From assembly GCA_043812495.1 (NCBI GenBank), contig JBDRMG010000018.1, forward strand, positions 7,651 through 71,650: DNA of 64,000 nt, in the 5' to 3' direction. The DNA comes from Candidatus Omnitrophota bacterium. GTDB lineage: Bacteria; Omnitrophota; Gorgyraeia; Zapsychrales; JBDRMG01. The notes under the pieces are model-generated. The model did not search any database, was not told the DNA's origin, and was given only the letters and a program-made list of their open reading frames with translations. This document shows, in pieces, positions 2,733-19,898 of this stretch. The position numbers were made by a program, and so were the translations under genes. Each line of letters opens with the position of its first letter. Positions within the stretch are counted from its first letter, which is position 1.

Positions 2733-2746
2733 CAATAAACCTCCGT

Positions 2747-3556
2747 TCATCGAGACGTTGCTCTTAACCACTTTTCCTCTAAGTCTTTTCTCGAGCTGAT
2801 CGAATAGGTGTAGGCACTGCGCAAGGCCTCATCCATATCCTTTCCTTCCTTAAGATTCCAGCACAAGCGTTCAAACGCGCTGCTTCCGTATGTTCGTATC
2901 AAAAAATCGATGATAGATAAACTTTGGGCATAAAATATCCGGACGATGTCCGCGTTGTTCTGTTGATAAATCTGCATTTGGAACAATGTATCAAAAGGAA
3001 TATGCTGATTCTTTTGCGCTAAAGGCTTCATGATCAATTCACCGAGTCTCTTTCGATCTTTTTCATAGAGTTGCGCAATGCCCTCATCGAACCAAACAGG
3101 AAGCGGTCGATCAAACCCGATAAAATCACGTAAAATCAGATGGCTGATTTCATGCGGCAATAAGCCGTCTAAGAATCCATGCTCCTGGCGATAGGTGACA
3201 ATGATGCGCGATCCGAAAAGCTGAGAATGATGATTGGCGTATCCACGGGACCAAAGAGGCTGTTGCGTATTGTTAACAAACGTTTCTTGATTCGGAAAGA
3301 TAATGATTTTGGCCCGATCGTTCCATGTCCAGAAGTTGGAATAGCGCGTATACCCGATTTGTGCCGCAATCTTGTCGTAGTAGCTTTCGGCTTTACGCAG
3401 AACCCGCCGGGCGGCTGACGTATCTTCTTTAAAATTATAGTAAACGATAAAGTGTTTATCCTTCAGATGCAGCCAGGGTTCGGCGTAAGCCAAGTGCGTC
3501 ATGAGAAAGATCTGAAAAACAATATAAAGATTTATAGCTATTTTGCGGCTGATCAT
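2747..3556 (-). CDS. Secreted HExxH zinc-peptidase-like protein (peptidase MA-like domain)
   Basis: 269 aa. Signal peptide (…LMTHLAYA|EP). Motif LLPHEISHLILRDF...VWFDEGIAQLYE, i.e. HExxH plus a downstream Glu. Paralogue of the CDS at 44273..45055. Embedded between gspF and gspG. Confidence 0.6.
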   Translation of the reverse strand: MISRKIAINLYIVFQIFLMTHLAYAEPWLHLKDKHFIVYYNFKEDTSAARRVLRKAESYYDKIAAQIGYTRYSNFWTWNDRAKIIIFPNQETFVNNTQQPLWSRGYANHHSQLFGSRIIVTYRQEHGFLDGLLPHEISHLILRDFIGFDRPLPVWFDEGIAQLYEKDRKRLGELIMKPLAQKNQHIPFDTLFQMQIYQQNNADIVRIFYAQSLSIIDFLIRTYGSSAFERLCWNLKEGKDMDEALRSAYTYSISSRKDLEEKWLRATSR

Positions 3557-3575
3557 AAATCACTTCGCAGGCCTT

Positions 3576-4784
3576 TTATTGGGCTAAAATATCCATTTGG
3601 AATATGGGAAGCAGCATGGCAATCACCATAAAACCAACGACAGAGCCCACAATGAGAATCATGACGGGTTCCAGCAAGGCGGTCACGGTCCTGATCTTCT
3701 CGTTGGCTTCCTGCTCATAGGAGTCAGCGACATCTCCAAGCGACTCTTCCAGGGATCCTGATTCCTCTCCGATTTTAATCATATCGCAAACCAAGACCGG
3801 GAAAAGATCTGTTTTTCTTAAGCTCTCCCCTAGCGATAATCCTTTCTCCAAATCTTCGCGACAAGGCAGGAGGCCTTCCTGAATAAATCCGTTATTTAAA
3901 GTCGGAATAGAAATGGTCAGGGCCCTCACTAGAGGAACGCCGCTTTTGATCAATAATTCTAATGTCCGTGAAAAGCGCACAATTTCGCTTTTGGAAATGA
4001 TATCACCCAAGAGGGGCAAGCGAAGTTTCAGCCGGCTCAACAAAACGCGCCCGCTTTTGGATTTTGCCCACCTGGAAACCGAAACAAGACCCACGATGAG
4101 GACGACCGAAATAACGGGCCACCCGCGGCGAATCAAGTTGCTGAGATTAATTAATATTTGCGTTGCCAAGGGAAGCTGTTGCTGCATGCTCGCAAATATA
4201 TTTGTGAGCCGGGGCATAACAAACGTCAGAATAAAGATAACGGTCGCACAACCGACGATCGCCATAAACGCGGGATAGGCTATGGCCGCACGGACTTTAC
4301 CGGAAATTTCTTCCTGCTTCTGAAGGTACTCAGAAATGCGAAGCAGCATCTCCCTGAGATTGCCCCCTTCCTCACCGGCTCTGATCATGGCGATGTAAAG
4401 GCCGGAAAAAATATTGGGATAGATGGCCAGGCATTGGGAAAAATTCTCTCCATCCTTAACGCGGCTAACGACAGACTGAATCACACCTTGAAAATAGACA
4501 TTGTGGGTTTGATTCGCCAATAAACTCAAGGCGCGCAAAAGCGGAATACCGGCCTTAAGCAGATTAGCCAGTTGCCGACTAAAAAGATAAATCTCCCTCG
4601 GGCGAACTCGTTGCGGCCTTCCAAAGCTTTTTCGTGCTGACGTTTTTGAGCACTCTTCAACGGAAATAGGAATTAATCCTAAGCGATGAACGATGTCAAT
4701 GGCTTCCTCTTGGTGGCGTGCCTCGAGCGTTCCGGCAACCGTCTCGGTGGCTCCTTTTTTGGCCTTGTAACGATATGTGGGCAT
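3576..4784 (-). CDS. gspF: Type II secretion inner-membrane platform protein GspF (PilC/MshG family)
   Basis: 402 aa. Two GspF-type repeats with three TM segments. N-terminal MPTYRYKAKKGATETVAGTLEA typical of GspF/PilC. Directly downstream of the ATPase gene. Confidence 0.9.
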   Translation of the reverse strand: MPTYRYKAKKGATETVAGTLEARHQEEAIDIVHRLGLIPISVEECSKTSARKSFGRPQRVRPREIYLFSRQLANLLKAGIPLLRALSLLANQTHNVYFQGVIQSVVSRVKDGENFSQCLAIYPNIFSGLYIAMIRAGEEGGNLREMLLRISEYLQKQEEISGKVRAAIAYPAFMAIVGCATVIFILTFVMPRLTNIFASMQQQLPLATQILINLSNLIRRGWPVISVVLIVGLVSVSRWAKSKSGRVLLSRLKLRLPLLGDIISKSEIVRFSRTLELLIKSGVPLVRALTISIPTLNNGFIQEGLLPCREDLEKGLSLGESLRKTDLFPVLVCDMIKIGEESGSLEESLGDVADSYEQEANEKIRTVTALLEPVMILIVGSVVGFMVIAMLLPIFQMDILAQ

Positions 4785-4807: not shown

Positions 4808-7030
4808 CTACGGACTGATTCGTGCGTTGACAAAATCTTTGATATGCGCGCGATCAGCGCTCGATATATCAAGAAAATAGACCGCGATACTGTACATATT
4901 CGAGAGAACGTCCTCCTCGACGCGGCAAACCTTGGCCAAGCAATCAATGCTTGGCTGATCAGACTTAAAATGTATTTTTAACTCCAGAATCGAACCGGCA
5001 GCAATCGAGTAACTCGACGTAAAGAGCAATCCGCCAGCGCTAATGTTTTTTGTCTGCGAGGAATGCTCGATCTCCCCTCGTTTGATCTTTAAATCTTGAG
5101 AATCCGTGGATTCCTCTTCAAAGACCCTGTAGCGAATCTTAACTTTTTCTTTGATCCGCGAATAAGCGCGCTGATCATATTCCTTTCTGGCTTGAGTCAT
5201 GACATTCTTGGAAATGGTGCGAAATTCTCCTATGGCTTCATCGGAAACGGAATGCCCCTTGCCCTCCGGACCCAAGGCCTCCTTGTTTTTGCCTGGCTCT
5301 CCTTTTTTCGGACCATAGTCTTCTTTGCTTGTGACATTGAGAATTTCCATAGGTGTCGTGATCCCCTCGACAACCTTTTGCCAACCGTTTTGCCGCAGCG
5401 TCATCATGCCTTCCTGCATCGCTAAGTGCTTAATATAGTTGGTCCGCGGTTTTTCTAAGATGGCCGCGCGAATCTTTTCGGTGACGATCAGGACTTCATG
5501 GATAGCTGTCCGGCCGTAAAAACCCGTATGGTTACATCGGTCGCATCCCTTGCCGGAATAGAATTTAATATCTTCGATTTTTAATCCCAGAGCTTCGGAA
5601 ATCTCTTTTTTGACTTCAAGAAACGGACTCATCACTTGATTTTTGCAATAGGGGCAAATCAACCGAACTAAACGCTGGGCCACAAAGGCCTCAACGCTTG
5701 AAGCCACCAAATACGGCTCAAGTCCCATATCGATGAGCCTGGTCACGCCGCTAGCCGCGTCATTGGTGTGCAGCGTCGAGAAAACCAAGTGGCCGGTCAA
5801 GGCGGTACGAATCGCGATTTCCGCGGTCTCGATGTCCCTCACCTCTCCGACCATGATAATATCGGGATCGTGTCTTAAAATGCTTCGCAGGCCCCGGGCA
5901 AAATCAAGATCCACCTTGGCATTCACTTGGATTTGCGTCACCCCTTCCATCTCATATTCAATAGGATCCTCGATCGTGATGATTTTGCGCTCCAGGGAGT
6001 TGATTTCATGAAGACAGGCATAGAGCGTTGTTGTCTTACCGCTTCCGGTCGGACCTGTGACAAAAATAATCCCGTGCGGTTTCTTGATGAGTTCGCGAAA
6101 TTTTTTGACATTCTCCTGATCTAATCCTAATTTCTCAAGGCTCAGAAGCATAACTTTTGACGGCAGGATGCGTAACACCATACTCTCGCCCGACGGTGTC
6201 GGCATGGTCGATACGCGCAAGTCCAGGGTCTGATCTTTTGTCTTGACGACGGCGCTTCCATCCTGCGGCAGTCGCTTCTCGACAATGCTCAAATTGGACA
6301 TGATTTTGATGCGCGAAAGAATGGACGGCAAGAAATGCCTGATATCCGCCGGCAGGTTGGCATCGACCAAAACACCGTCGATGCGATAGCGGAACCTCAG
6401 CTTGTTGCGATAGGGTTCGATATGGATATCCGTCGCTCGTTTTTTGTACGCCTCAAGGATGATTTGGTTAACGAGCTTAATGACAGAGGCGTCTTCGGAT
6501 TTTTTCTCCACGTCTTCGATGGCTTGCCGATCCATATCTTGCGGAGTTCTTCTCGCGGGTTCTTTAGTCAGAATCCTCTCAATGGTATCCGAAGCCAAAC
6601 CGTAATATTTCTTAAGCATCTCAACGATATCGGATTCCTTAGCAAGAACCATTTTAGGCTGAAACCCCAGGTTCACCCTAATTTCATCCTGAATCTTGAC
6701 ATCCAGAGGCAAGGCTACCGCGCATGTTAAAAACTTCTCTTCAACTTTGATCGGCATAAAACGATAATACCAGGCAAACCGGACAGGGACTTTTTGAACA
6801 ATGTCCTGATCCATATCGGCTTTTCGGAGATCGATCGTGTCAATCTGAAAGTGTGCGGCACAGACTTTGAGAATTTGGTCTTCGCTCACCAAGCCTTGCG
6901 CGACAATATGCGTAGAACAGGACTCGCCGGACAGCTGAACCTCGCGCAAAGACTTTGCGGCCTGCTCCGGAGTCAGAAGATTTTCTCGGACTAAAATTTC
7001 CAATAATGTTTTCTCGATTTGCTTAATCAT
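4808..7030 (-). CDS. gspE: Type II secretion / MSHA-type ATPase GspE/MshE with N-terminal MshEN-like domain and C-terminal PilZ-like domain
   Basis: 740 aa. Walker A GPTGSGKTTTLYA. Tetracysteine zinc motif CPYC...CDRC. N-terminal LLEILVRENLLTPEQAAKSLREVQ / IVAQGLVSEDQILKV repeats resemble the MshEN c-di-GMP-binding motif. The C-terminal ~110 aa carry PilZ signatures RAYSR(IKEKVKIRYRV)...NISAGGLLF. Confidence 0.9.
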   Translation of the reverse strand: MIKQIEKTLLEILVRENLLTPEQAAKSLREVQLSGESCSTHIVAQGLVSEDQILKVCAAHFQIDTIDLRKADMDQDIVQKVPVRFAWYYRFMPIKVEEKFLTCAVALPLDVKIQDEIRVNLGFQPKMVLAKESDIVEMLKKYYGLASDTIERILTKEPARRTPQDMDRQAIEDVEKKSEDASVIKLVNQIILEAYKKRATDIHIEPYRNKLRFRYRIDGVLVDANLPADIRHFLPSILSRIKIMSNLSIVEKRLPQDGSAVVKTKDQTLDLRVSTMPTPSGESMVLRILPSKVMLLSLEKLGLDQENVKKFRELIKKPHGIIFVTGPTGSGKTTTLYACLHEINSLERKIITIEDPIEYEMEGVTQIQVNAKVDLDFARGLRSILRHDPDIIMVGEVRDIETAEIAIRTALTGHLVFSTLHTNDAASGVTRLIDMGLEPYLVASSVEAFVAQRLVRLICPYCKNQVMSPFLEVKKEISEALGLKIEDIKFYSGKGCDRCNHTGFYGRTAIHEVLIVTEKIRAAILEKPRTNYIKHLAMQEGMMTLRQNGWQKVVEGITTPMEILNVTSKEDYGPKKGEPGKNKEALGPEGKGHSVSDEAIGEFRTISKNVMTQARKEYDQRAYSRIKEKVKIRYRVFEEESTDSQDLKIKRGEIEHSSQTKNISAGGLLFTSSYSIAAGSILELKIHFKSDQPSIDCLAKVCRVEEDVLSNMYSIAVYFLDISSADRAHIKDFVNARISP

Positions 7031-7194: not shown

Positions 7195-8751
<1,557 letters not shown>

Positions 8752-8754
8752 TTA

Positions 8755-9606
8755 TTATCTCTTCGTCATCATTCTCGCTGTAAAGACTTCGCGCATACTT
8801 TTGTCAATATCGCCTTTTTTGGCCTTGCCAAAAGACATCTGAACACCTTTTTTTTGCTTCTGCATTTTCTGCAAGCTCGATTCTAATTGCTGAGACTGGG
8901 CCGCCGCTTCCGAGATGGCCGTATCATGCAGCATTTCGTAAATACGGCAGACAATCCACATATCGGCCAAGTAACCGATAATATCAACGGGATCAGACTC
9001 TTCAATCACCTTCTCGATGGTCTCCACAAAATCGGCTTGTTTGGTTAAGAGTTCCTCACAAGGAAGCAATTTGACAACGCGAGGTTTTTGTATCATAAAG
9101 TTCTTTGACCAGGGATAGACAACATTCGCTCGGCCGATTTTTCCGGTCATGATTTGTTCGATCAAATGATCCTTGATGTGGATGGCCGTCTCATAGAGCC
9201 CCGTTTCTTCAATATCTTCAAAAACCTTCATCTCGACACCCGGCCTTGCCATCTTAACGGCTCCTTTGCGCCCACAGGCAATCAAGAAAGAGTCTTTGTA
9301 TTTGCTTTGTTCGCTTAAGGCCGCACGGATAACGCGGCTATTCAGATCACCCATAAAGCCCGCTTCCGACGTGATCACCACGATTCCTGTAGCCGGATTG
9401 TCATTGGACACAAGCGGGTGCCTGACCCTTGAAAGACTGATCATGCGGAAAAATTCGACAAAAGACTCCCCAAAACGGGCAAAACGATCTTTTCGGTTGG
9501 CCAGCGTATGAAATTTATTGTCCGCAACGTCTTTAAGAACCTGGATGATTTGAAGCAACTCGATAATATCATCCAGATCGCCTTTAATTTTATTGGCTTT
9601 TCCCAT
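8755..9606 (-). CDS. atpG: F-type ATPase gamma subunit
   Basis: 283 aa. ...VVITSEAGFMGDLN... (the ITSDRGLCG equivalent). C-terminal helix ...REVFTARMM. Sits between the b/delta fusion and beta. Confidence 0.75.
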   Translation of the reverse strand: MGKANKIKGDLDDIIELLQIIQVLKDVADNKFHTLANRKDRFARFGESFVEFFRMISLSRVRHPLVSNDNPATGIVVITSEAGFMGDLNSRVIRAALSEQSKYKDSFLIACGRKGAVKMARPGVEMKVFEDIEETGLYETAIHIKDHLIEQIMTGKIGRANVVYPWSKNFMIQKPRVVKLLPCEELLTKQADFVETIEKVIEESDPVDIIGYLADMWIVCRIYEMLHDTAISEAAAQSQQLESSLQKMQKQKKGVQMSFGKAKKGDIDKSMREVFTARMMTKR

Positions 9607-9621: not shown

Positions 9622-10365
9622 TCAAGCGCCTTCGGCTCCTTCTTTTAAACTGACAGAAGTTTCCGTAATCAGATTCTGCAAACTTGCGTCCAAGGCCAAA
9701 CTGCCAAACCGTAAGACCACTCCTCCGATCACCTGAGGATCGACAGTCGTTTTGATATCGATGGTGCGCCCTAATTTCTCTTTAATAATATCGGAAATCT
9801 TTTTCTTGATATCTTCGGGCAAAGTACTTGCAACAATGATTTCCGCTGTTTCGATGTCTTTGCCGATTTGTGTCATGTCCACTTTTGTAAGACTCGCGAT
9901 AAACTCATCGGACAGTTGTTGATTGAGCAGGCCTCTGGCTTTCTCGCTTAAGACCTTCGAAAGTAAATCACCGGCATAGGTAATCATTTTGAGCTCAACT
10001 TCTTTTTTGACCTCAGAGCGCATCTGATCTTTTGTTCTCTGAGCCTTGGCGATGATCTCCTCGCTTTCGAACCTGGCTTTCTTGACAATTTCATCCCGTT
10101 CGGCCTTGGCTTTTTTATCAGCTTTTTCCAGCATCTTTTTGGTCAGTTCATCGGCCTCTTTCTTTCTTTTCTCAAGTTCCTCATTGGCGGCCTTGATCTT
10201 CTGGTCCAATTCTGTTTGCTTGGCCCTGGCTTCTTCCGTTTCGCGGTTAAGCCGTTTGACCGCTCCTTCTGTTTGCGAAACAAAAACATTTCGTAAAGTA
10301 AAAATAATGACACCCACCGCGACGACTTGCAGGAGCATAAATTTAAAGATCCACATCCAGGTCAT
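9622..10365 (-). CDS. F-type ATPase peripheral-stalk fusion: subunit b (TM + coiled coil) fused to delta/OSCP C-terminal domain only
   Basis: N-terminal TM MTWMWIFKFMLLQVVAVGVIIF. About 120 aa of charged coiled coil. C-terminus ...LGRTIDIKTTVDPQVIGGVVLRFGSLALDASLQNLI matches the delta C-terminal domain (E. coli ...[30 protein letters not shown]). The delta N-terminal helical bundle is absent. Confidence 0.75.
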   Translation of the reverse strand: MTWMWIFKFMLLQVVAVGVIIFTLRNVFVSQTEGAVKRLNRETEEARAKQTELDQKIKAANEELEKRKKEADELTKKMLEKADKKAKAERDEIVKKARFESEEIIAKAQRTKDQMRSEVKKEVELKMITYAGDLLSKVLSEKARGLLNQQLSDEFIASLTKVDMTQIGKDIETAEIIVASTLPEDIKKKISDIIKEKLGRTIDIKTTVDPQVIGGVVLRFGSLALDASLQNLITETSVSLKEGAEGA

Positions 10366-10468
10366 AGTTTGTTGCCTCCCAAATTTAGAATAATCATAAT
10401 AACGTTCATGGCAGAAATTATTTCCATTGTAATCATTTCTTAATCATTGCGTTTCGGCGAGAATATGA

Positions 10469-10713
10469 TCACTCGCCAAAACTCGACATCACATGGTAAA
10501 ACGTCAATAACATAGTGACTGAAACACCCTCCACCGCGATGAGCTGAAGCAGAATGCTCATCTGAATAGCCGGTGTTTTACTCGGAAAAAGAGAGATAGC
10601 TGCTTAATCATGCGATAACCGATCCAGGCAATAGACACGCAAGGGACCAGAATCATGAAGGCGATGATGGCAACAAGGACTAATCCTGTTGTTAAGGTCT
10701 CGCTAACAGCCAT
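10469..10713 (-). pseudogene. Second F-type ATPase c-subunit copy interrupted by a 1-nt frameshift in a T5 run
   Basis: Frame 1: MAVSETLTTGLVLVAIIAFMILVPCVSIAWIGYRMIKQLS... stops after 51 codons. Shifting by one nt at the T5 homopolymer (~10586-10596) continues as ...PSKTPAIQMSILLQLIAVEGVSVTMLLTFYHVMSSFGE. Helix 1, helix 2 and the conserved carboxylate E all align to the intact c subunit at 10733..10954. Confidence 0.6.
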
Positions 10714-10732
10714 AGGAAATACCTTCTATAAA

Positions 10733-10954
10733 TTACCTTCCGAACAATTGAAAGATGATTAAAATAGCCATAATAGATATGGCCTCGACAAAAATAAGCA
10801 AAACCACCATCCCCATGAAGATCTTAGAGGCCGCGGATGGATTACGTCCTAAAGCTTTAATAACGGAATAACCCAAGACAGCAATCACAACAGACGGTCC
10901 CATGACCGCAATAAACATAATCGAAATAATGATAAAGGATTCTGCCCAACGCAT
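10733..10954 (-). CDS. atpE: F-type ATPase c subunit (proteolipid)
   Basis: 73 aa. Two TM helices and a polar loop GRNPSAASK. Conserved acidic residue in helix 2 (LLIFVEAISIMAIL). Confidence 0.8.
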   Translation of the reverse strand: MRWAESFIIISIMFIAVMGPSVVIAVLGYSVIKALGRNPSAASKIFMGMVVLLIFVEAISIMAILIIFQLFGR

Positions 10955-10990
10955 ATTTTATTGAATTACACTCCTGTCCATGCCAACCAC

Positions 10991-11317
10991 TTAACCCCCA
11001 TCACCCTCGGGTTTCTCCTGAGCAAAAACAATATCTTCTTCTTTGGTTTTCTTAACCTTCTCCTGCTCTTCCTGTTCGACCAGGACAATGCAATCATTCG
11101 CGAAGAATCGGATGACGCCGCCTCTAATCGGAACCGCTTCTTTCCAATCAATAATGATGCTGCCTTTCTGCAAGATACCCAAAACAGGATAGTGATAGGG
11201 CAGCAATTCATATTCGCCCGTATCTCCCGACAAGAAGACACTATGCACTTCGTTCTCGTAAATGAGCGCATCGGGTGTCATAATCGTTAATTTGAATGTT
11301 CCTTTGTATCGAGCCAT
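10991..11317 (-). CDS. atpC: F-type ATPase epsilon subunit (N-terminal beta-sandwich; short acidic C-terminus)
   Basis: MARYKGTFKLTIMTPDALIYENEVHSVFLSGDTGEYELLPYHYPVLGILQKGSII...GGVIRFFANDCIVLVE aligns with the epsilon N-domain (L.VV.P....F.G.V..V...G..GE.GI.P.H.P.L..L..G). The C-terminal helical hairpin is replaced by an E/K-rich tail. Confidence 0.7.
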   Translation of the reverse strand: MARYKGTFKLTIMTPDALIYENEVHSVFLSGDTGEYELLPYHYPVLGILQKGSIIIDWKEAVPIRGGVIRFFANDCIVLVEQEEQEKVKKTKEEDIVFAQEKPEGDGG

Positions 11318-11662
11318 GTTAAGGAAATATTATAATTGCATTTGCTTGATCCCCGCCCGCCATTGATTCAGTGGCGGGCGGGGTCAAACCCAGCGGGGAA
11401 TCCCCGCCTTTATTTAAGGCGGGGAGGAGAGCAAATACCAGCAACAAAGTTGCTGGTCAAGCTCTGCTTGAAAAACAATTTATCAAGTACCACGGCTGTG
11501 GGTATCTATTTCGGTCATGCACTTATGTTTCCGTCAATTCGATAAAATCGAATTGACGAGACCTCGCTAAATTTTGAGAAAATGTGCGGGCACTATCGTT
11601 CCATAAGCGCGGGCCTCATTGATTAGTAAGAGTTCTTGTTGAGTAGCCTTTCTTTGCAATCG
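11318..11662. repeat. Palindromic repeat cluster inside the atp gene array (family A)
   Basis: 345-bp non-coding gap between atpA and atpC. Contains AATATTATAATTGCATTTGCTTGATCC, hairpin ccccgcccgccattgattcagtggcgggcgggg, cggggaatccccg, and the perfect palindrome cgtcaattcgat-aaa-atcgaattgacg (also at 28243-28269). Confidence 0.7.
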
Positions 11663-13204
11663 TCAGCTCCCTTTCGCCGTTGTCGCCTTATCCAGCGCAT
11701 CCTCCCCCACGCCAACTTCCTCGGCTTCCTCTTCTTCATCCTTGGGTCTTTTAGCTTCCGCTTCTTTAATGTAGTCTTTAATCACGCTCTCGAAACCTTT
11801 GGTGATTTCATCGTCTATTTTTTTTCTTTCGCGCAGGATCTTCAATAGATCCGGATTCTTTTTCTGACAAAAGGGCGCAATTTCATTCTGAAAGGCCTTG
11901 ACCTCGTCAATCGTCAATTGCAACAGAAGTTTCTTAGTGTAGGCATAAAGAACAAAAGCCAGTGCCTCCAGGGAAACCGGGCTATCTTTGTCTTGCTTGA
12001 TGATTTCAGTTAAAATTTCGCCTGTCTTCATCTGTTGCTGGGCTTCTTCGGACTGTCCGGATGATTTTAATTTAGAAACCCGCAATAATTCCCTGAATTG
12101 GATATAATCCAAACGCAAAGAACCGGTGAATTTCTTGATGACAGGCCATTGGACTTTACTTCCGACGCGAGAAACGGAAAGACCGATATCCACGGCGGGC
12201 TTCTGCCCTTCTCCGAAAAGCGGCGTGCTTAACATGATTTGGCCATCGGTCATCGAAATAAGATTCGAGGAAATATATCCCGTCAAATCTCCTTCTAGAA
12301 TTTCGACAATAGGCAAAAATGTCATCGAACCTCCTCCATGGTCTTGGTCCAAGAAGGCGGCTCGCTCAATCATCTTCGAGTGCAAGTAAAAAATATCTCC
12401 CGGATAAGAGTCGCGGCCGGGCGGACGTCCCAATAATAGAGAAATTTCACGATAACACCAGGCATGTTTAGTAAAATCGTCAAAGCCGACAATCACATCT
12501 TTTCCCTGATTCATAAAATGCTCGCCGATAGAACAGGCCACGTAGGGAGCCAAGTATTGTTGTCCGGGCGGACAGGAAGCAGTGGCCGAAACAATGATCG
12601 TGTACCTAAAGCACTCGTGATCTTGGAATAGCTGTACAACCTTAGCTAAGGATGATCTTGATTTTCCGATGCAGCAATAGATACAAACAACATTTTTTCC
12701 CTTTTGATTCAGAATAGTATCTGTAATAATTGTTGTTTTCCCCGTCATTTTGTCGCCAAGAATGAGCTCTCTTTGACCATAACCAATAGGGATCATGGTA
12801 TCCAATACCTTAATCCCAGTCTCTAAAGTTTTACACAAAGGAACTCGGGCCAAAATAGGAGGGGCATTAATAAAAATAGGCGCCATTTTATCATGCTCAA
12901 GAGGCCCTAAGCCGTCAAGCGACTCCCCCAAAGGATTGACAATCCGCCCCAATAATTTGTCGCCAACGGGAACAAGAAACGGCTCCAGAGAAGCGACCGC
13001 CTTATCACCAGTCTTGATCTTCTCTGTCTCCTTAACGATCAGAACCTGGGCCTCGGTCTCGTCAAAACCAATGATGGTTCCTTCTGTCCCATATCCAAAT
13101 TTGATGAGCTGTCCGCTGATGCAGTGTTTAAAACCCGTCACCACAACGATACATCCGCGGATACACCGGACCCGTCCAATCTCTGTATAACGTAAATCTG
13201 CCAT
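11663..13204 (-). CDS. atpA: F-type ATPase alpha subunit (N-terminally truncated, Cys-rich variant)
   Basis: Aligns to canonical alpha from the beta-barrel onward. Walker A GDKMTGKTTIITDTILNQ. ...ATASCPPGQQYLAPYVACSIGEHF..., ...LLLGRPPGRDSYPGDIFYLHSKMIERAA, ...SVSRVGS. The ~30 N-terminal residues that normally bind delta are missing. RBS GGAGC 8 nt upstream of the ATG. Confidence 0.85.
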   Translation of the reverse strand: MADLRYTEIGRVRCIRGCIVVVTGFKHCISGQLIKFGYGTEGTIIGFDETEAQVLIVKETEKIKTGDKAVASLEPFLVPVGDKLLGRIVNPLGESLDGLGPLEHDKMAPIFINAPPILARVPLCKTLETGIKVLDTMIPIGYGQRELILGDKMTGKTTIITDTILNQKGKNVVCIYCCIGKSRSSLAKVVQLFQDHECFRYTIIVSATASCPPGQQYLAPYVACSIGEHFMNQGKDVIVGFDDFTKHAWCYREISLLLGRPPGRDSYPGDIFYLHSKMIERAAFLDQDHGGGSMTFLPIVEILEGDLTGYISSNLISMTDGQIMLSTPLFGEGQKPAVDIGLSVSRVGSKVQWPVIKKFTGSLRLDYIQFRELLRVSKLKSSGQSEEAQQQMKTGEILTEIIKQDKDSPVSLEALAFVLYAYTKKLLLQLTIDEVKAFQNEIAPFCQKKNPDLLKILRERKKIDDEITKGFESVIKDYIKEAEAKRPKDEEEEAEEVGVGEDALDKATTAKGS

Positions 13205-13290: not shown

Positions 13291-14658
13291 TTAAGTTTTT
13301 TCTTCTTCAGGATTCTCTGCTGCCTTCACTTTCTTGATGGTCCCTCCGGCCTTAACGGCCAATTCCTCTCCCATGATTTGAGATTTTTTCCACCACGTAA
13401 AGAAGTGAATGGATGTAAAGAAGACGATAAAGATCAGGATGCCGTAAATAATTCTCCAGGTTGTGGTCATGGTCGGTTTTTTGCCGAAGATCGCTTCCGA
13501 AATAGCCGCGATTCCGCGCAAGGCCTGTAATTTCTGCAGGATATTCGTGACTTTACTATTCTCTAATTTTTCGAGTTTCTTGGCCTTGACCCGCGCCAAC
13601 AATAATTCGAGCTTATCGATTTCTTCTTGAACATCTTTGAACCGCTCTTGATTTGTTCGAAAAGCGCCGATATAACGGCTCATATTCTGACGATTTTGCT
13701 GCGTTTGCTGAATAAGATCAAGCAAATTAAGAATTCTGTCTGAGATAAAACTGGCTCCTCCCTCGTATTCTGAGCCCTCCATTTGCTTAACGATATCTTC
13801 CGTGTGCATGAGAAAGGCGTCAATTTTCTCTTGAGATATTTGCCAAATGTCTTTAATCTCAATGGTGTATTTCTTCTTCTCGTGGGGTCCAAGCTCCTCG
13901 CTTTTTGTTAAATAGGATTGTTGCTTTTCCTGGCTAAAGCGCATATCAAATCCTTGAAGCTCAATAATATGCTCGGCCCTCACTTCTTGAGGCAGAAAAT
14001 GTCTTTGGGTAAACGTTTTTTTCTCATCATAAGGATTCTCGATTTCAATCACAAACCGCACCGTTTGTGTTGTTTCTGTCGCGGGCCGCTGTTCCGATTT
14101 GAAGTAATCGGCAGAGAAGGCATTTTTTCTTATTTTCTCTATCGAATCCACGTTCGCGCGATATTCTTCGATGCGACGCTCGATATTATCCGAATAGTTG
14201 ACCTGCGAGGCAAGGATGCGATCAAGCTTATCGATCATATTTTGCCCTAAAATTCCTGCGCTGGCTTGATAATCCGTCCCTTGAAGTTGGGAAACATTCT
14301 CTTCGATCTGTGTCCTAAGAATGTCCACTTCTTCTTGGGTGATCCGCCAGACATCCTTGACTTCGATTTTAATCGTTTTTGATTCCTTGGGCTGAAGCTC
14401 AACAGTTCCAAAAAGAAAATATTGTGATTTATCTAAGTCGTAATCAAGTTCCAGCCCACCGCTATTAACGACATTATCGGGTGTTATTTCTTTAGGGAGA
14501 GGATATTTGATGGGTTCGGTTTTCGTTTCATCTGGTGAAGCGTTCACGGCAACCAAGTTAATATAGATATTGGCGTAAGTGACATGACTAAAGACAAAGA
14601 CGGAGAGCATGAAGAAAAAAGCAAGAATTGTGTGTTTAAAAAAGATATTTCTCAGCAT
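13291..14658 (-). CDS. Hypothetical secreted, C-terminally membrane-anchored protein with a tandem internal duplication
   Basis: 455 aa. N-terminal signal peptide. Two ~130-aa homologous segments (...VELQPKESKTIKIEVKDVWRITQEEVDILRTQIEENVSQLQGTDYQASAGILG... / ...EELGPHEKKKYTIEIKDIWQISQEKIDAFLMHTEDIVKQMEGSEYEGGASFISD...). Coiled coil, then C-terminal TM WRIIYGILIFIVFFTSIHFFTWW. Confidence 0.55.
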   Translation of the reverse strand: MLRNIFFKHTILAFFFMLSVFVFSHVTYANIYINLVAVNASPDETKTEPIKYPLPKEITPDNVVNSGGLELDYDLDKSQYFLFGTVELQPKESKTIKIEVKDVWRITQEEVDILRTQIEENVSQLQGTDYQASAGILGQNMIDKLDRILASQVNYSDNIERRIEEYRANVDSIEKIRKNAFSADYFKSEQRPATETTQTVRFVIEIENPYDEKKTFTQRHFLPQEVRAEHIIELQGFDMRFSQEKQQSYLTKSEELGPHEKKKYTIEIKDIWQISQEKIDAFLMHTEDIVKQMEGSEYEGGASFISDRILNLLDLIQQTQQNRQNMSRYIGAFRTNQERFKDVQEEIDKLELLLARVKAKKLEKLENSKVTNILQKLQALRGIAAISEAIFGKKPTMTTTWRIIYGILIFIVFFTSIHFFTWWKKSQIMGEELAVKAGGTIKKVKAAENPEEEKT

Positions 14659-14666: not shown

Positions 14667-17600
14667 TTATTCTCCACTTTCAAAATATGTTTTAACGACA
14701 ACGTCTTGTTTCTCGACAGACTCTTTAATGGCAGAAACTTTCACGATAATCTCACTAAGTTTATTGTCGATTTTCGCCGCATCGACAATTGCTCCGCTTT
14801 CAAAAGGTTGAACCTCAACGCCTTCGCCGACCAAACCCACAGCCTTGGCGCTCTCGTTGACAAAATTCGTCAATGTATCAATGATCTCTGCAGCCAATGT
14901 ATTGGATTCGACTTGACTTGCGGAAATCGCTTCTGCGGAAGTCCTCAATTCTGCCATGAGCTTTTGAATATTTCCGACCTTCTCATAAAAGACGTCGGCC
15001 CTCCCTTGAGCGCCGATTTCAGCGCGAATACCTTGGACCTCCTGCAAAACGGCGCCCGCATTGCTTTTGGCCGTATCGATATTATCCGCCATATCGCTTA
15101 AACCCGATAATGAACCAAAGATTGTTGTCGTGTCTGCATCGGCATCTGTTCCCATAAGCGTCTCGACATTTGAAACAGTTGTATCAATAGTATTAATAGT
15201 GCCGAAGAGCGTTGTTGAGCTTGTATCTGTTGAGCTTCCGACCGTTGTTGTCAGAGTACTTAAAGACGTCTTGATGAGTGTAATATCACTTGACAAATTA
15301 ACACCGCTAATATTATTCACAGCATCAAGCACACCGGCGATTTTTCCAAAAAGGGTATTGCTGGAGGACGTGTCGGTGGCCGCGCCAATTAACGTGTTCA
15401 TGTTTTGTACGCTTGTGAGAATGCTTGCGACATTGGCAACCAGAGCACGCGCATTGTCCGCAAGATAGGCGATGTCGCTCCAATTGACGTTCGCATTGCT
15501 CATAAAAGCAAGATCGCTCCAGTTAATCCCGGTCGTGCTTGACGCGCCCATGTCAGTCCAATTGATCCCGGTTCCCGACATATAAGAAATATCAGCCCAG
15601 TTAACCCCGGAATCGGTCATCACATCAATATCGGCCCAGTTGATGCCTGTGTCACTCATGGCATCGATATCGGCCCAGTTGATGCCCGCGTCAGACATCA
15701 CGCCAATATCGGCCCAGTTGATGCCAGCGTCAGACATAATATTGATATCATCCCAATTAATACCGCTTTCGCTTAAAACTTCGATATCTTCCCAATTGAT
15801 GCCTGCTGCGCTAAGATCGCGAATACTGGTCCAATTCACGCCTGCCTTGGTCAAGACATTGATATCTACCCAATTGACCCCTGTCTCACTTAAGACTTGA
15901 AGATCATCCCAGTTGATACCGGCTACAGATAACATCATCATGTCGGTCCAATTAATACCCGCTTGCGCTAATTCTCCCAAATTATCCCAATTAACTCCAG
16001 CCCCTGACATTTCATTAATATTATCCCAGTTGATGCCGGCAGAACTTAAATCATCGATACTTGTCCAATTTATCCCCTTATCAGACATAATCTGAATATC
16101 ATCCCAGTTGATTCCTTTGTCTGATAGGACATCAATATCTGCCCAGTTGATGCCGGCATCCGAAAGGACATCAATATCCGCCCAGTTGATGCCGGCATCC
16201 GACATGTCGTTGATGCTGGTCCAGTTGATGCCTTTATCGCTCAAGACATCGATATCCGCCCAGTTAATACCCGTGTCCGAGAGGACATCCAAGTCCGCCC
16301 AGTTGATGCCAGCATCCGACATGTCGTTGATGCTGGTCCAGTTGATGCCCTTATCCGAAAGCACATCGATATCGGCCCAATTGATGCCCGCATCGCTCAT
16401 GACATCTAAGTCTGCCCAGTTGATGCCGGCACCAGAAAGAACCTGCCAATCCGCCCAATTGACGCTGGCCTTGGTCATGATCTCCAGGTCATACCAATTT
16501 AGGCCTGCATCGCTCATAAGATCCAGGTCGTTCCAATTGACGCCGGCTGTGGTTAATTCAGCTAGATTATCCCAATTCACCTGCTCGGTCCAGTTGACAC
16601 CTGATCCGGTCATATAGGCTAAGTCGTACCAGTTGACCGCGGCCTCGCTCATATACTCGAGGTCTTCCCAGTTGATGCCGGCGTCCGAGAGGACATCCAA
16701 GTCCGCCCAGTTGATACCCGCATCCGAAAGGACATCGATATCCGCCCAGTTGATGCCTTTATCACTCATGACATCGATATCCGCCCAGTTGATGCCTTTT
16801 TCGCTCATGGTATAAATGTCTGTCCAGTTGACGCCGGCGGTGGTCAGGTCATAGAGGTCGTCCCAGTTGACACCGGCATCGGACATTTCCGCGATATCGT
16901 CCCAGTTGATGCCGCCTAAGGTCAACTCCTCAATATCGGTCCAGTTGATGCCTTCGGTCGTGAGGACGTTCAAATCCGTCCAGTTGACACCTTTTGTGGT
17001 CAAGACCGCCATATCGGTCCAATTGATGCCTTTTTTGGTCATGATTTGGATATCGTCCCAATTGGCCTTGTCGATTTCGGTATAAATCGCCGCGACTTGG
17101 GTGTTGATGTCCGTCGCGTAATCCAAGATTTGACCGATTTGTTTTGCCGCGGATACGTTTAATGCAAAAGAACCGCCGTAAGCGGTCGTACAGGTTATTG
17201 TTGGTTGCGCAAAATAGGTATAATCTTCATCGGCCGGCGTCCATCCTGAATAACTAAAAACATCCACGTCAAGATTCCGGTAAGTCATGCTTTTGTCATT
17301 GCAGCTACCGGAACAGCCGGTTGTTACGGCAAGCGTGTTTGGGTCAACAATATCTAATGTGGCTGAGCAGCCTGAAAGGTCTTGCGGTACACCGTTTTTC
17401 TCAAGCCAGGAAATCACATTGAACGCCCCTGCCGTATCTTCATAAATCAAATACCCTTTTATTTCATAGATATCCGTGCCGCCAGGATTATAGAAAATGT
17501 AAAACGTATTGGAATCGCAGGTAATGCTTGTATCAGTGCTCAAAGTCGCACGTAAACTATAATTAACACCAGGGTTATCTATATTGATTCCATCACCCGT

Positions 17601-18641
17601 AAAATCCGCCACGCCATCCACCAGATTCATGGAACAGGTGCCGCTGGTACAGACCGCGCCGGCATCCACAAGCGTGCCGTTGGCCGGATTATTTAAGATC
17701 GTAAAACTCATGGAATCATCCGACCACGTTCCTATGGAGATTGTTTCGGGATTATCGTTGTAAAGAGTGATAATAGGCTGGGGGGCAAAAGCGGTGTCTT
17801 CGATTGTATCGGGAATCGTGTTCCAACCGCAGCTAGCGGGTGTGGTATCCATCAACGGCGTCCAGGCCATAGCGCTCGAATAGGATAAGAAGGTATTGCC
17901 AAATGCGTAACATCCTGCCGGAAGGCACGAACAACTCAAACTATTGTCGTTTTGACTATAATCTCTTGCTGTGCTAAAGTTAAAGCTATTCCCATCTGAT
18001 TTATCGTCAAAAGGCCAATAGGCTTGAAGATTGGCAGGGCGTATTTGAAGGGGCATCCCCTTGATGTAGGATTTATAAAGCAAGCCAACATCTGTTGAAT
18101 TTAATTCTGTGTTCCAAATGGCTAATTCGGTTACCCGACCATCGAAAAACTGGCCAGCAGATCCGCTTTGACCAAAAGAGAGGGTGGTTGAACTAGTATT
18201 AACTGCTAATGAACAATTATTCGTTCCCTGGCTAACGCCATTGACATACCACGTAATGGTGTCTGGGGTTGCATCCACATCCCGAACGGCTACGATGTGT
18301 TGCCAAGCTGTTGTTGCTGTATATGAACTTGTGCAGTCTGCGCCATCTTGATGCATAAAAACGAGGTTTGCTAATCCGTCCCAGCCGATGCCAAAGTTAC
18401 CCGTTCTACCGGCCGCTGTTCCTTTAATGAGAACTGTTGTTGCGGAAGCCACGGTATCGGGTTCAATCCAAAGACTAATGGTCATGTCCCCTGCGATTTG
18501 AAGAGAAGCGTCGTTCGCTTCGGTGCAAGAGTCGGAACCGTCCATTTCAATCATAGCAAAGCATAGACGACTGCTTAGAAAAAAGGCCGTAGCGATGATT
18601 GAGATGCTAAGCCAAATTTTGAGATTTTTTGATTTGATCAC
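14667..18641 (-). CDS. Giant secreted surface/adhesin-like protein: LamG/ConA-like lectin domain + Cys-rich region + ~42 x 13-residue INW-repeat array + C-terminal TLFG repeats
   Basis: 1324 aa. Signal peptide. LamG-like segment (…WQHIVAVRD…WYVNG…FFDGRVTELAIWNTELNSTDV). Long array of units like SDAGINWADIDVL. Three C-terminal D(T)SSTTLFGxI... repeats. Acidic, Thr/Ser-rich. Confidence 0.7.
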   Translation of the reverse strand: MIKSKNLKIWLSISIIATAFFLSSRLCFAMIEMDGSDSCTEANDASLQIAGDMTISLWIEPDTVASATTVLIKGTAAGRTGNFGIGWDGLANLVFMHQDGADCTSSYTATTAWQHIVAVRDVDATPDTITWYVNGVSQGTNNCSLAVNTSSTTLSFGQSGSAGQFFDGRVTELAIWNTELNSTDVGLLYKSYIKGMPLQIRPANLQAYWPFDDKSDGNSFNFSTARDYSQNDNSLSCSCLPAGCYAFGNTFLSYSSAMAWTPLMDTTPASCGWNTIPDTIEDTAFAPQPIITLYNDNPETISIGTWSDDSMSFTILNNPANGTLVDAGAVCTSGTCSMNLVDGVADFTGDGINIDNPGVNYSLRATLSTDTSITCDSNTFYIFYNPGGTDIYEIKGYLIYEDTAGAFNVISWLEKNGVPQDLSGCSATLDIVDPNTLAVTTGCSGSCNDKSMTYRNLDVDVFSYSGWTPADEDYTYFAQPTITCTTAYGGSFALNVSAAKQIGQILDYATDINTQVAAIYTEIDKANWDDIQIMTKKGINWTDMAVLTTKGVNWTDLNVLTTEGINWTDIEELTLGGINWDDIAEMSDAGVNWDDLYDLTTAGVNWTDIYTMSEKGINWADIDVMSDKGINWADIDVLSDAGINWADLDVLSDAGINWEDLEYMSEAAVNWYDLAYMTGSGVNWTEQVNWDNLAELTTAGVNWNDLDLMSDAGLNWYDLEIMTKASVNWADWQVLSGAGINWADLDVMSDAGINWADIDVLSDKGINWTSINDMSDAGINWADLDVLSDTGINWADIDVLSDKGINWTSINDMSDAGINWADIDVLSDAGINWADIDVLSDKGINWDDIQIMSDKGINWTSIDDLSSAGINWDNINEMSGAGVNWDNLGELAQAGINWTDMMMLSVAGINWDDLQVLSETGVNWVDINVLTKAGVNWTSIRDLSAAGINWEDIEVLSESGINWDDINIMSDAGINWADIGVMSDAGINWADIDAMSDTGINWADIDVMTDSGVNWADISYMSGTGINWTDMGASSTTGINWSDLAFMSNANVNWSDIAYLADNARALVANVASILTSVQNMNTLIGAATDTSSSNTLFGKIAGVLDAVNNISGVNLSSDITLIKTSLSTLTTTVGSSTDTSSTTLFGTINTIDTTVSNVETLMGTDADADTTTIFGSLSGLSDMADNIDTAKSNAGAVLQEVQGIRAEIGAQGRADVFYEKVGNIQKLMAELRTSAEAISASQVESNTLAAEIIDTLTNFVNESAKAVGLVGEGVEVQPFESGAIVDAAKIDNKLSEIIVKVSAIKESVEKQDVVVKTYFESGE
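15470..17075. repeat. In-frame 39-bp tandem coding repeats (~42 copies) encoding the 13-aa INW(A/T)D(I/L)DV(L/M)SD(A/K)G unit
   Basis: Visible as a periodic DNA run (…gatatcggcccagttgatgcc(g/t)gcatccga(a/g)agga/cat…). It produces the spurious plus-strand ORFs 15640-17085 in the ORF track. Near-identical copies make this region prone to assembly collapse or expansion. Confidence 0.8.
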
Positions 18642-18665
18642 GATTATAGGAAATTCAATTTTTTG

Positions 18666-19232
18666 TTAATTGGTTGTGTATTCTAGCGAAAAGGCCCGGA
18701 GCTCCAAATCACCTGTGGCCGTATCATCGGCATCATCGTGGTCTCGATTGACTCTAATAATCACTAAATCATTAGCGGCCACGCTATCGGCATTGGTCAA
18801 TGTAATGCTGATTTCATCGATAATTCCTGCCGTCCCCGGAACAGCCGTTCCCCCTGAGACTTCATTGACCGCATCAAAGCTTGCCGTGTCCGGATCGCTT
18901 TCGCCAACTGTTAAGGCCATCACTTCCACTTCTAAATCTACATTACCGCTCGTGGCCGATGCCATCGTATAGATTAATTTGGCACTCAAGGCAGAAGAAT
19001 AATTGGTCGGCATACGGAACATCCATGTCGCGCTTTCTGTCTGTGTCGTTGAAAACAGCAAATTCCAAGACGCGCTTGTTCCGTCTATCCTTGCTGAGTT
19101 TGTTATATAAGAACCGTATATTCTTGCCGCATGAACCGGAAGGATCATTGTGCTCGTTGTTCCCGCAAAACTATTAATCGCTGGGGTCATCCATAAGAAG
19201 AAAATAACAAATAAAAAAAGTCTTTTTTTCAT
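18666..19232 (-). CDS. Secreted hypothetical protein, paralogue 1 of a tandem triplet
   Basis: 188 aa. Signal peptide (…INSFA|GTTSTMILPV). Shares with 19294..19869 and 19899..20489 the motifs GT(T/A)xT(x)ILP(V/I)..A, SW(R/N)LLF, (Q/T)(D/N)Y(S/F)S, KL(L/I)Y(T/S)M(A/V)S(A/T)TSG(K/N)VD(M/L)EV(E/Y)V(M/H)AL, ESDPD(T/S)A, AANDLVIIRVNRDHDD.DDT and the C-terminus DLELRA(F/V)(S/T)LEYT(T/S)N. Confidence 0.6.
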   Translation of the reverse strand: MKKRLFLFVIFFLWMTPAINSFAGTTSTMILPVHAARIYGSYITNSARIDGTSASWNLLFSTTQTESATWMFRMPTNYSSALSAKLIYTMASATSGNVDLEVEVMALTVGESDPDTASFDAVNEVSGGTAVPGTAGIIDEISITLTNADSVAANDLVIIRVNRDHDDADDTATGDLELRAFSLEYTTN

Positions 19233-19293
19233 TGATTCTCCTTAGCGCTATCCATTCTTTTTTTCATACAAAGATTCTTCCTAGAGCCATGCC

Positions 19294-19869
19294 TTATCTA
19301 TTTGATGTGTATTCTAAAGTCACTGCCCTCAGTTCTAAATCCGTTGTTGCCGTATCGTCACTATCGCTGGGATCTCTCTTGATTCTCAAACGGACCCAAT
19401 CATTGGCAGCCATACTATCGTCATTGGCTAACGAAATGCTTATCTCATCTAAGATGCCGGCTGTTCCGGGGACGGTTGTCCCCCCCAAAACTTCATTGAG
19501 AGAATCAAACTGAACGGCGGAGTCCGGATCGCTTTCATCATCGGAAAGGGCGTGCACATAGACCTCCATATCGACTTTTCCGCTTGTCGCTGATACCATT
19601 GTATACAATAACTTGATGACAGGAGCGGAAGAATAATCTTGCGGTAGAGCAAATATAAACTCGACTATTTCCCCCAATGATGTTCCATCAAATAACAGGC
19701 GCCAGGCTCCGTTTTGAGCATCCAGGTTGGGAAGATTTGTCATTCCATGAAATTTTGCGGCTTCGATGGGTAATATCAGCGTTGCTGTCGCTGTCCCGGC
19801 ATAAGCCGCTCGGTTAAAAAGACCCACCGATATCAATGTGAACATGAATAAAAAGATATAACGTTTCAC
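19294..19869 (-). CDS. Secreted hypothetical protein, paralogue 2 of a tandem triplet
   Basis: 191 aa. Signal peptide (…NRAAYA|GTATATLILPI). Same conserved blocks and C-terminal LELRAVTLEYTSNR. Confidence 0.6.
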   Translation of the reverse strand: MKRYIFLFMFTLISVGLFNRAAYAGTATATLILPIEAAKFHGMTNLPNLDAQNGAWRLLFDGTSLGEIVEFIFALPQDYSSAPVIKLLYTMVSATSGKVDMEVYVHALSDDESDPDSAVQFDSLNEVLGGTTVPGTAGILDEISISLANDDSMAANDWVRLRIKRDPSDSDDTATTDLELRAVTLEYTSNR

Positions 19870-19898
19870 GCGATCTCCTTATGTTTAATTCGTTATAT

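Follow-up and report, generated by a model that had tools for sequence, protein, structure and literature searches.

How an F-type ATPase might hold its catalytic head when both halves of the usual joint are gone is the question raised by a gene cluster of Candidatus Omnitrophota. The cluster lies in a 64-kb window (64,000 nt, the whole stretch of DNA analysed, to which all coordinates refer) of contig JBDRMG010000018.1, from an Omnitrophota metagenome-assembled genome (MAG), and its ATPase genes occupy the minus strand. The clamp between the N-terminal tail of alpha and the N-terminal helical bundle of delta is regarded as the joint between F1 and stator that defines F-type ATP synthases. Here, alpha lacks the H1 helix that forms its tail, delta lacks the bundle and persists as a C-terminal domain fused to subunit b, and we are close to certain that this double loss is a real and conserved remodelling of the stator. 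The cluster as a whole we read, with a probability of roughly 70%, as encoding a membrane-anchored rotary ATPase derived from the F type, with a rebuilt stator and possibly acting as an ATP-hydrolysing motor linked to a co-encoded secretion apparatus. In order of transcription, its parts are as follows.

11663..13204, minus strand: alpha, 513 amino acids (aa) (Pfam ATP-synt_ab and ATP-synt_ab_C; TIGR00962).
11318..11662, minus strand: spacer of 345 bp between alpha and epsilon (sequence and stem-loops).
10991..11317, minus strand: epsilon, 108 aa (Pfam ATP-synt_DE_N at residues 8-81).
10733..10954, minus strand: c1, 73 aa, a c-subunit hairpin that bears an RNP loop and a membrane Glu (FVEAISI; Pfam ATP-synt_C).
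10470..10713, minus strand: c2, a second c-like hairpin, frameshifted (three-frame translation).
9622..10365, minus strand: b/delta fusion, 247 aa (Pfam OSCP and ATP-synt_B).
8755..9606, minus strand: gamma, 283 aa (Pfam ATP-synt at residues 5-275; 45-83% identity across loci).
7195..8736 (open reading frame [ORF]), minus strand: beta with an N-terminal extension (TIGR01039 at residues 55-511).

The cluster was compared with 30 related Omnitrophota loci (10 kb to either side of the cluster) and with 14 canonical outgroup loci that include the region of subunit a. Two distant and divergent family members, L048 and L049, were inspected from matches to a b/delta profile. The gene order alpha-epsilon-c1-c2-b/delta-gamma-beta was identical in 30 of 30 related loci.

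Alpha begins where the canonical protein has already left its delta-binding helix. Its ATG at 13204 is preceded by AGGAG, and an in-frame TGA lies nine codons 5'. In alignments to Protein Data Bank (PDB) entries, residue 4 pairs with residue 22-23 of the Bacillus PS3 and Caldalkalibacillus alphas; the alignments begin at residue 21-31 of canonical alphas, and canonical bacterial alphas, scoring up to 460 bits, head the list of matches. The AtpA profile TIGR00962 gives 517.3 bits (cut-off, 484.45) over profile positions 23-500 of 503, with residue 5 at position 23, and in an AlphaFold2 model built from 50 homologues no N-terminal helix precedes the first beta-strand, which spans residues 7-16. 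Moreover, the identical start is found in 29 Omnitrophota loci from independent assemblies, with an in-frame stop 1-14 codons upstream in 28 of them, while in the last the upstream region runs into the contig end. Database homologues tell the same story: 120 of them, at 65-100% identity, are of equal length, and an IRGCI-type motif falls at index 14-17 in 108 and at index 22 in one (the pattern was unmatched in 11). In each of eight canonical outgroup alphas from the same scan, the usual "EISxxIKxQI" helix of 22-28 residues is present. Thus, the shared start, the upstream stops, and the homologues together exclude a mis-called start or a sequencing error. The arginine finger is kept in 31 of 31 alpha sequences.

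At its other end, alpha carries an extension of ~30 aa (residues ~482-513; 11663-11760) that is absent from canonical alphas and consists of an acidic linker and a conserved VG.D.LD.AT motif. The fuller pattern (N)VG[VT]DxLDxAT[ST]KK occurs in 83 of the 120 homologues, in which conservation of the unconstrained A and T positions reaches ~99%. AlphaFold2 leaves residues 490-513 disordered (predicted local distance difference test [pLDDT] score below 50), with a short helix at 504-508. The extension could be a docking peptide or a regulatory hook like that of mycobacteria.

The partner of the missing helix is missing too. The b/delta protein consists of an N-terminal transmembrane (TM) helix, a b-type coiled coil to about residue 160, and a delta C-terminal domain at about residues 162-246 (9625..9882). 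In a PDB search with a profile of 29 family members, residues 7-160 aligned with residues 12-164 of Bacillus PS3 subunit b and residues 162-235 with residues 97-170 of Escherichia coli delta (E = 3e-12); the latter stretch also matched the mycobacterial b-delta fusion (445 aa) over its final ~90-100 residues. The AlphaFold2 model (pLDDT, 87) has one helix over residues 3-142, comprising TM anchor and coiled coil, then a short helix at 148-159 and a beta-alpha-beta-beta-beta-alpha head at 173-246. By Foldseek, that head superposes on the delta C-domain of Pseudomonas aeruginosa (1.3 A over 69 columns) and of Acinetobacter baumannii (2.0 A over 67), and profile alignment, model, and Foldseek showed no counterpart of the delta N-terminal bundle anywhere in the protein. 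The best NCBIfam match is TIGR03321, the N-ATPase subunit B, at 61.2 bits and collinear (37-233 on 39-238), and there is a fainter likeness to V-ATPase subunit E, both by Foldseek (E of about 3e-5 for rat, human, and yeast) and by NCBIfam (PRK03963, V-type subunit E; E = 2e-5). Mean column identity among the 29 family members is 62%, and the GG..L.FGSL.LD motif of the delta C-domain is nearly invariant. The family extends to 139 clusters (at 50% identity) at E<=1e-30, with 44 homologues in a separate search, and most of 150 b/delta clusters listed are 240-250 aa long and match end to end.

A second protein of the window carries the same domain.

28381..28767, minus strand: mini paralogue, 128 aa, a TM helix and a delta C-terminal domain (Pfam OSCP, E=6e-13).

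This mini ORF (28767..28381) covers positions 72-167 of the 172-position OSCP profile, is 29% identical to b/delta residues 146-238, and consists of a TM helix followed by a short helix and the delta-C-domain module, with neither a b coiled coil nor a delta N-domain. Its start overlaps the stop of a PDZ/Peptidase_S41 gene, and glycosyltransferases are encoded nearby. A word-indexed search for relatives returned only the mini ORF itself, and short matches in the representative b/delta search, considered as further mini paralogues, were rejected as gene fragments. Because it has no N-domain, the mini ORF neither restores a canonical stalk nor amounts to a separate full-length delta, and no full-length delta was found in the window or in the 30 related loci.

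An earlier note, made from the sequence of the window alone, had proposed that alpha lacks its delta-binding segment, that delta survives only as a C-terminal domain fused to b, and that the two losses are a co-evolved remodelling and not an artefact. All three proposals are borne out: the truncation of alpha by the PDB and TIGR00962 alignments, the model, and the upstream stops; the reduction of delta by the family profile, the model, and Foldseek; and the remodelling by the presence of both losses in every member examined and the strong conservation of both proteins. Neither upstream in-frame coding sequence that would lengthen alpha nor a full-length delta gene, the two things that the note had named as fatal to its proposal, was found in the loci covered. 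The architecture, which the note had suggested seeking in related genomes, is indeed widespread, being present across the 30 loci, the 120 alpha homologues, and the 139 b/delta clusters. The note erred, however, in calling the fusion the only delta homologue, as the mini ORF is a second one. Both losses persist even in L049, which shows 58% identity in alpha and 28% in b/delta. That the losses occur together in every member examined, in proteins so strongly conserved, argues that the stator remodelling is selected and functional rather than an artefact. Such coupling is not obligatory in general, however, since the N-ATPase has the same fusion of b with a delta C-domain and yet retains N-terminal alpha positions.

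The extension of beta, by contrast with these losses, appears peripheral. The note had described it as ~55 aa long and suggested that it might contact b/delta. That an extension exists is clear from PDB alignments in which ORF residues 54-56 pair with residues 2-3 of canonical beta. Its length was probably overstated: the longest ORF opens with a TTG at 8736 that has no ribosome-binding site, whereas an ATG at 8691 is preceded by GGAGG, and the latter is therefore the likely start, giving 498 aa and ~40 rather than 55 extra residues. Across the loci the extension varies from 12 to 60 residues, is of low complexity with an abundance of E, K, S, N, D, and P, and shows no conserved sequence. In the 21 loci that yielded it, a conserved barrel motif falls at index 20-67, compared with an estimated index of about 8-10 in canonical beta. 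Conservation begins exactly at (R/K)GxGR[IV][IV]SVQGP, the equivalent of the canonical N terminus, and the 467-aa beta of L049 has no extension. Contact with b/delta thus finds no support, and we rejected the extension as a general stalk anchor replacing the alpha tail. Judged by its sequence, it is a lineage-variable disordered tail and not core to the remodelling. The rest of beta is canonical in appearance: it scores 514.6 bits against the AtpD profile TIGR01039 (cut-off, 462.85), and Walker A and the catalytic GER..E are present in all 27 matching sequences, which we take to be the true betas.

What the rotor might be used for depends in part on the other membrane subunits. Subunit a was sought with E. 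coli AtpB by phmmer and then with a hidden Markov model (HMM) built from the matches. The HMM recovered AtpB in 14 of 14 canonical outgroup loci (E of 1e-12 to 1e-108), but found no subunit a in the 64-kb window (best E=0.015) or across the 30 Omnitrophota loci (best E=0.055). The second c-like protein was considered as a substitute and rejected, as it is a c-type hairpin and often loses its Glu. Epsilon retains its beta-sandwich and a charged tail and lacks the two-helix C-terminal inhibitory domain: it matches TIGR01216 over positions 1-85 of 130 at 46 bits (cut-off, 67), and family lengths are 76-113 aa. Gamma and c likewise fall below the canonical F1Fo cut-offs (86 versus 194 bits and 19.8 versus 43.95 bits, respectively).

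The c subunits vary more than the rest, with from one hairpin (L049) to three (some genomes). In c1 the RNP loop is conserved and the membrane Glu is kept in 25 of 28 loci, and of the exceptions, two have a further c paralogue that bears the Glu. In two genomes with three hairpins (L014 5905-6620; L022 4496-5190), the middle, c1-type copy lacks the membrane Glu (VIFVIAISA and VIFVVAISV) and the extra upstream copy keeps it, which suggests mixed c-rings with few ion-binding sites. The c2 gene of the window is frameshifted in a T5 run at ~10590, where T6 would restore an 81-aa hairpin protein; in other loci c2 is intact (71-99 aa), although its Glu is lost in four. The spacer between alpha and epsilon is also unusual, at 345 bp versus about 6-170 bp, mostly below 60 bp, elsewhere. 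It holds GC-rich stem-loops (for example, 11348-11385 and 11393-11407), those at 11393-11407 and 11457-11437 being terminator-like. Comparison with Rfam gave only sub-threshold chance matches, and the hairpin is not repeated elsewhere in the window; with no credible Rfam match and a hairpin unique in the window, a miniature inverted-repeat transposable element and a noncoding RNA were both rejected. The spacer might serve as an attenuator within the operon or affect mRNA stability, or it may be what is left of an insertion.

The ATPase genes are embedded in a larger cluster, whose members in the window are as follows.

155..4784, minus strand: GspF, a Peptidase_MA_2 protein, a GspG-like major pseudopilin, two N_methyl pseudopilins, and GspK (Pfam).
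4808..7030, minus strand: GspE/PilB-type secretion ATPase with a C-terminal PilZ domain, directly downstream of beta (MshEN, T2SSE, and PilZ in the L001 orthologue).
13291..14658, minus strand: p455, with an N-terminal signal-like hydrophobic segment and a C-terminal TM anchor, directly upstream of alpha.
14667..25326, minus strand: GINW-repeat protein, three ~190-aa paralogues, a TPR protein, secretin GspD, a GspC-like protein, and an ExeA-like AAA protein (Pfam).

Across the 30 loci, the wider synteny reads repeat protein, p455, alpha, epsilon, c1, c2, b/delta, gamma, beta, GspE(PilZ), and GspF. GspE and GspF directly follow beta in every locus of sufficient length. Upstream, p455 is found in all loci that have upstream sequence, always immediately 5' of alpha, and the repeat protein is always the second gene upstream of alpha. 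The latter (14667-18641, minus strand) has 1324 aa, an N-terminal Laminin_G_3 domain, and dozens of tandem 13-residue "xGINWxDxxxxSx" repeats with a DNA period of 39 nt; its L001 orthologue reaches 7092 aa. L049 has the order p455, alpha (with the same short N terminus), epsilon, c, b/delta, gamma, beta, GspE(PilZ), GspF, and GspG. By their domain content, the genes around the ATPase (ExeA-like, GspC-like, secretin, GspE, GspF, GspG, pseudopilins, and GspK) look more like a type II secretion system (T2SS) than the "type-4a pilus" of the literature. Between the repeat protein and the TPR protein and secretin, three tandem paralogues of ~190 aa (18666-20489, minus strand) have signal-like N termini and match no Pfam family.

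The p455 protein matched no Pfam family. In L048 (1281-3209), it carries a GGDEF domain at its C terminus, after the TM segment, and the fusion directly precedes epsilon, c, and b/delta; since the GGDEF domain follows the TM segment, we set the topology of p455 as N-out/C-in. The fusion, together with the cyclic di-GMP (c-di-GMP)-binding MshEN and PilZ domains on the GspE-type ATPase, suggests c-di-GMP signalling within the apparatus. As a substitute for subunit a, p455 was rejected: it has a single C-terminal TM segment, and its body is probably periplasmic, as indicated by the signal-like N terminus and the GGDEF fusion in L048.

How such a stator could hold F1 is suggested by its dimensions and its relatives. 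With a b part as long as a normal b, the b/delta stalk would be long enough to reach the top of alpha3beta3, and its globular delta-C head would bind the crown directly, as do subunit E in A/V-ATPases and AtpF in N-ATPases, in place of the alpha-tail/delta-bundle clamp. How the motor might be used is a further step. The absence of subunit a and of an epsilon brake, together with the invariant embedding among secretion and pilus genes, argues for an ATP-hydrolysing motor over a synthase: a rotor of gamma, epsilon, and c-ring would turn against the b/delta stator, and its output would serve the co-encoded secretion, pilus, and giant-adhesin apparatus rather than chemiosmotic ATP synthesis. From gene content, we hold a hydrolysis-driven, non-chemiosmotic role linked to the T2SS/type IV pilus (T4P)-like system to be a tentative proposal, at slightly under even odds. 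We speculate further, and consider it unlikely, that the enzyme is a membrane-embedded motor that does without subunit a altogether, in which ATP hydrolysis in alpha3beta3 spins a c1/c2 ring against the b/delta-C stator and the receiver of the torque, or of a conformational cycle, is the T2SS/T4P-like platform, p455, or the giant GINW-repeat protein. If so, the enzyme would correspond, in bacteria, to the gliding motor of Mycoplasma, but with a c-ring still in use. With neither the delta N-domain that caps the apex nor the alpha tails in place, such a motor could also bind more than one stalk per hexamer, up to three, as in V-ATPases.

Several observations weigh against the reading of a rebuilt, possibly hydrolytic motor. 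Alpha and beta are closer by HMM score to canonical AtpA and AtpD (517 and 515 bits) than to the Mycoplasma motor families. Every genome retains at least one Glu-bearing c paralogue, as expected if ions are still translocated; an a-type partner may therefore exist elsewhere in the genome, and this keeps alive the alternative that the enzyme works chemiosmotically, as an F-type ATP synthase or an ion pump whose stalk is unusual, whose subunit a is encoded at a distance, and whose secretion neighbourhood is incidental. The docking site of the stalk head is itself inferred, and on balance we only somewhat favour direct attachment to the crown. The functional tie to the secretion and pilus genes is drawn from gene order only, and the c2 frameshift could mean that this copy is impaired, or could be a homopolymer error of assembly. 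A chemiosmotic enzyme would also account for alpha and beta scores above the curated AtpA and AtpD cut-offs, for the conserved RNP loop and membrane Glu of c1, and for a b part that is full length and TM anchored. Moreover, an F-type ATPase module is scored in 37 of 39 Zapsychrales species clusters by Seymour et al. 2023 (PMC10066038), and one of our loci, L028, is a Zapsychrus MAG. Nevertheless, no subunit a lies within 10 kb to either side in 30 loci or in the 64-kb window, even though c and b are in the cluster; the synteny with GspE, GspF, and the repeat protein is invariant and hence not incidental; and the inhibitory domain of epsilon is lost. Another chemiosmotic enzyme may also be available: among the Gorgyraeia genomes outside Pluralincolimonadales that were compared in a 2026 preprint, 70-99% are reported to have subunits of a V/A-type ATPase. 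We therefore regard a synthase or pump as improbable, while giving it far more weight than either of the two explanations that remain.

One of these is that the truncations are functionless, arising from decay of the operon, from an error in the sequence, or from an alpha start that was wrongly called. The frameshift of c2 at the T5 run and the unusually long alpha-epsilon spacer are the kind of blemish that this explanation predicts, but the alpha start and its upstream stops recur across independent assemblies and in homologues of equal length, gamma, beta, and b/delta are 38-83% identical across loci with their catalytic motifs intact, and c2 is whole in other loci. We rejected a pseudogenised operon on the conservation and the intact motifs, and the chance of any such artefact or decay is vanishingly small. 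Scarcely more credible is that the enzyme belongs to the N-ATPases, the laterally transferred Na+-pumping F-type ATPases. The best NCBIfam match of b/delta is to that family and N-ATPase operons have no atpH, but the scores are far under the cut-offs, the genes do not follow the order atpDCQRBEFAG, no subunit a turned up in the window or the 30 loci, and alpha lacks the N-terminal segment kept in the N-ATPase alpha profile. We thus retain the reading of an F-type-derived rotary ATPase with a rebuilt stator.

Why the anatomy of this enzyme matters goes beyond one genome. A phylum-wide family keeps a TM-anchored b, a c-ring, and a canonical-looking alpha3beta3-gamma, yet has dropped both halves of the clamp, and it stands structurally between true F1Fo and N-ATPases and the soluble Mycoplasma G1 motor. 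That intermediate anatomy makes it a concrete system for asking how a delta C-domain alone can hold F1. That question touches on whether b-delta, subunit E, and FliH share an origin, as has been proposed, and the cluster also raises the role of a c-ring without subunit a and the recruitment of rotary ATPases to surface machinery in ultra-small, host-dependent bacteria. Finally, because pipelines based on KEGG Orthology (KO) assignments or modules count this family as "F-type ATP synthase", they may overestimate the respiratory capacity of Omnitrophota.

The gene family itself has been reported. Seymour et al. 2023 (PMC10066038) describe a "symbiotic" F-type ATPase of Omnitrophota as a "non-respiratory homologue" that is co-located with pilus genes in 57 of 66 contigs and that clusters in trees with Mycoplasma type 2/3 ATPases. 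By sequence and neighbourhood, the window ATPase is a member of that family: the phylum, the alpha family, and the co-location with pilus or secretion genes are the same, the closest named alpha homologues are Omnitrophota MAG proteins (including P0001), alpha and b/delta each have a 100% identical NCBI protein from a Candidatus Omnitrophota MAG, and T4P/T2SS genes lie within 10 kb. The earlier note had framed the cluster as a departure from canonical F1Fo; it is better placed in this non-respiratory family, with no subunit a gene in the cluster and in a T2SS/T4P-like operon. The text and ATPase supplements of Seymour et al. give alpha and beta trees and co-location, and we found nothing in them on delta, subunit a, or the peripheral stalk. 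Against those parts of the source, the anatomy at the level of subunits (no alpha H1, b with a delta C-domain, two c paralogues, no subunit a, and an epsilon without its C-domain) was not reported before. The 2026 preprint found alpha and beta in 125 of 176 complete genomes and gamma in only 30, and judged F1Fo "incomplete"; the low gamma count is consistent with divergent subunits being missed. Of the canonical F1Fo features, alpha and beta exceed the AtpA and AtpD equivalog cut-offs; a separate delta with its bundle and a subunit a are absent from the window and the 30 loci, and a full epsilon and gamma and c scores above the cut-offs are lacking.

Among known systems, the N-ATPase offers the closest stalk. 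Its operon has no atpH, the C-terminal part of delta finds its match in the long AtpF (Dibrova et al. 2010, PMC2881411), and AtpF and A/V subunit E have both been equated with a b-delta fusion (Dibrova et al. 2010; also ProAD). Like the Omnitrophota protein, AtpF is ~246 aa long and combines b with only the C-terminal delta part, with no separate atpH. Unlike the Omnitrophota cluster, the N-ATPase has subunit a, AtpQ, and AtpR and the order atpDCQRBEFAG (beta-epsilon-Q-R-a-c-b-alpha-gamma); no ORF of the Omnitrophota operon is left unassigned for AtpQ or AtpR, although no search was aimed at them. Moreover, the N-ATPase alpha profile TIGR03324 keeps ~21 N-terminal positions and the window alpha aligns to it from position 22, and the cut-offs are missed by alpha (494.8 versus 750.5), beta (TIGR03305, 444.6 versus 752), and b (TIGR03321, 61.2 versus 224.7). 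Subunit E of A/V-ATPases resembles b/delta in having a long N-terminal helix and a C-terminal alpha/beta head, and its head docks directly on the catalytic hexamer. Subunit E, however, is soluble and paired with G, in two or three EG stalks set in collars of subunits a, C, and H, whereas b/delta has its own TM anchor and no gene for a G-like partner is present. In mycobacteria, the b-delta fusion keeps a complete delta with its N-terminal bundle, alpha keeps its N terminus, and a separate b' exists. That fusion likewise joins b and delta in one polypeptide, and it is the top Foldseek match of the Omnitrophota protein (PDB 7jg5 chain d), but it is ~445 aa long and the match is confined to its last ~90-100 residues.

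The Mycoplasma type 2/3 ATPases are non-respiratory, hydrolyse ATP, and are tied to surface machinery (PMC11864180; Beven et al. 2012, PMC3369863). In the type 2 enzyme of Mycoplasma mobile, G1-alpha has no H1, the helix by which alpha binds the peripheral stalk, G1-beta is N-terminally extended, and GliD is possibly derived from b-delta (Toyonaga et al. 2025, PMC11864180). Points of likeness to the Omnitrophota ATPase are an alpha without H1, an N-terminal extension of beta, and a protein of long helix and globular domain that is proposed to derive from b-delta. Moreover, residue 12 of the window alpha is the first to align with NF045863, at profile position 3, and residue 43 the first to align with NF045936, at position 36, so that Mycoplasma-type alphas begin at about the same point. 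However, both a c subunit and a TM-anchored b are absent from the Mycoplasma clusters; GliD, which attaches to the C-terminal region of alpha, is without a TM segment, whereas b/delta is TM anchored; and the G1-beta extension is a folded region of ~300 residues that recruits phosphoglycerate kinase, whereas the Omnitrophota extension is short and of low complexity. A 12-TM protein of the Mycoplasma Protein 1 type was not found among the annotated genes of the Omnitrophota cluster. With c and a TM-anchored b present and the cut-offs missed (NF045863, 398 versus 600; NF045858, 422 versus 850; NF045936, 300 versus 520; NF045934, 382 versus 570), the Omnitrophota ATPase is, on its sequence, not a Mycoplasma type 2/3 ATPase. 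Each single feature has its precedent, in N-ATPase AtpF, in A/V subunit E, or in Mycoplasma G1-alpha. To our knowledge, the combination of a clamp-less alpha, a TM-anchored b with a delta C-domain, a c1/c2 ring, no subunit a, and an operon embedded among T2SS genes has not been described.

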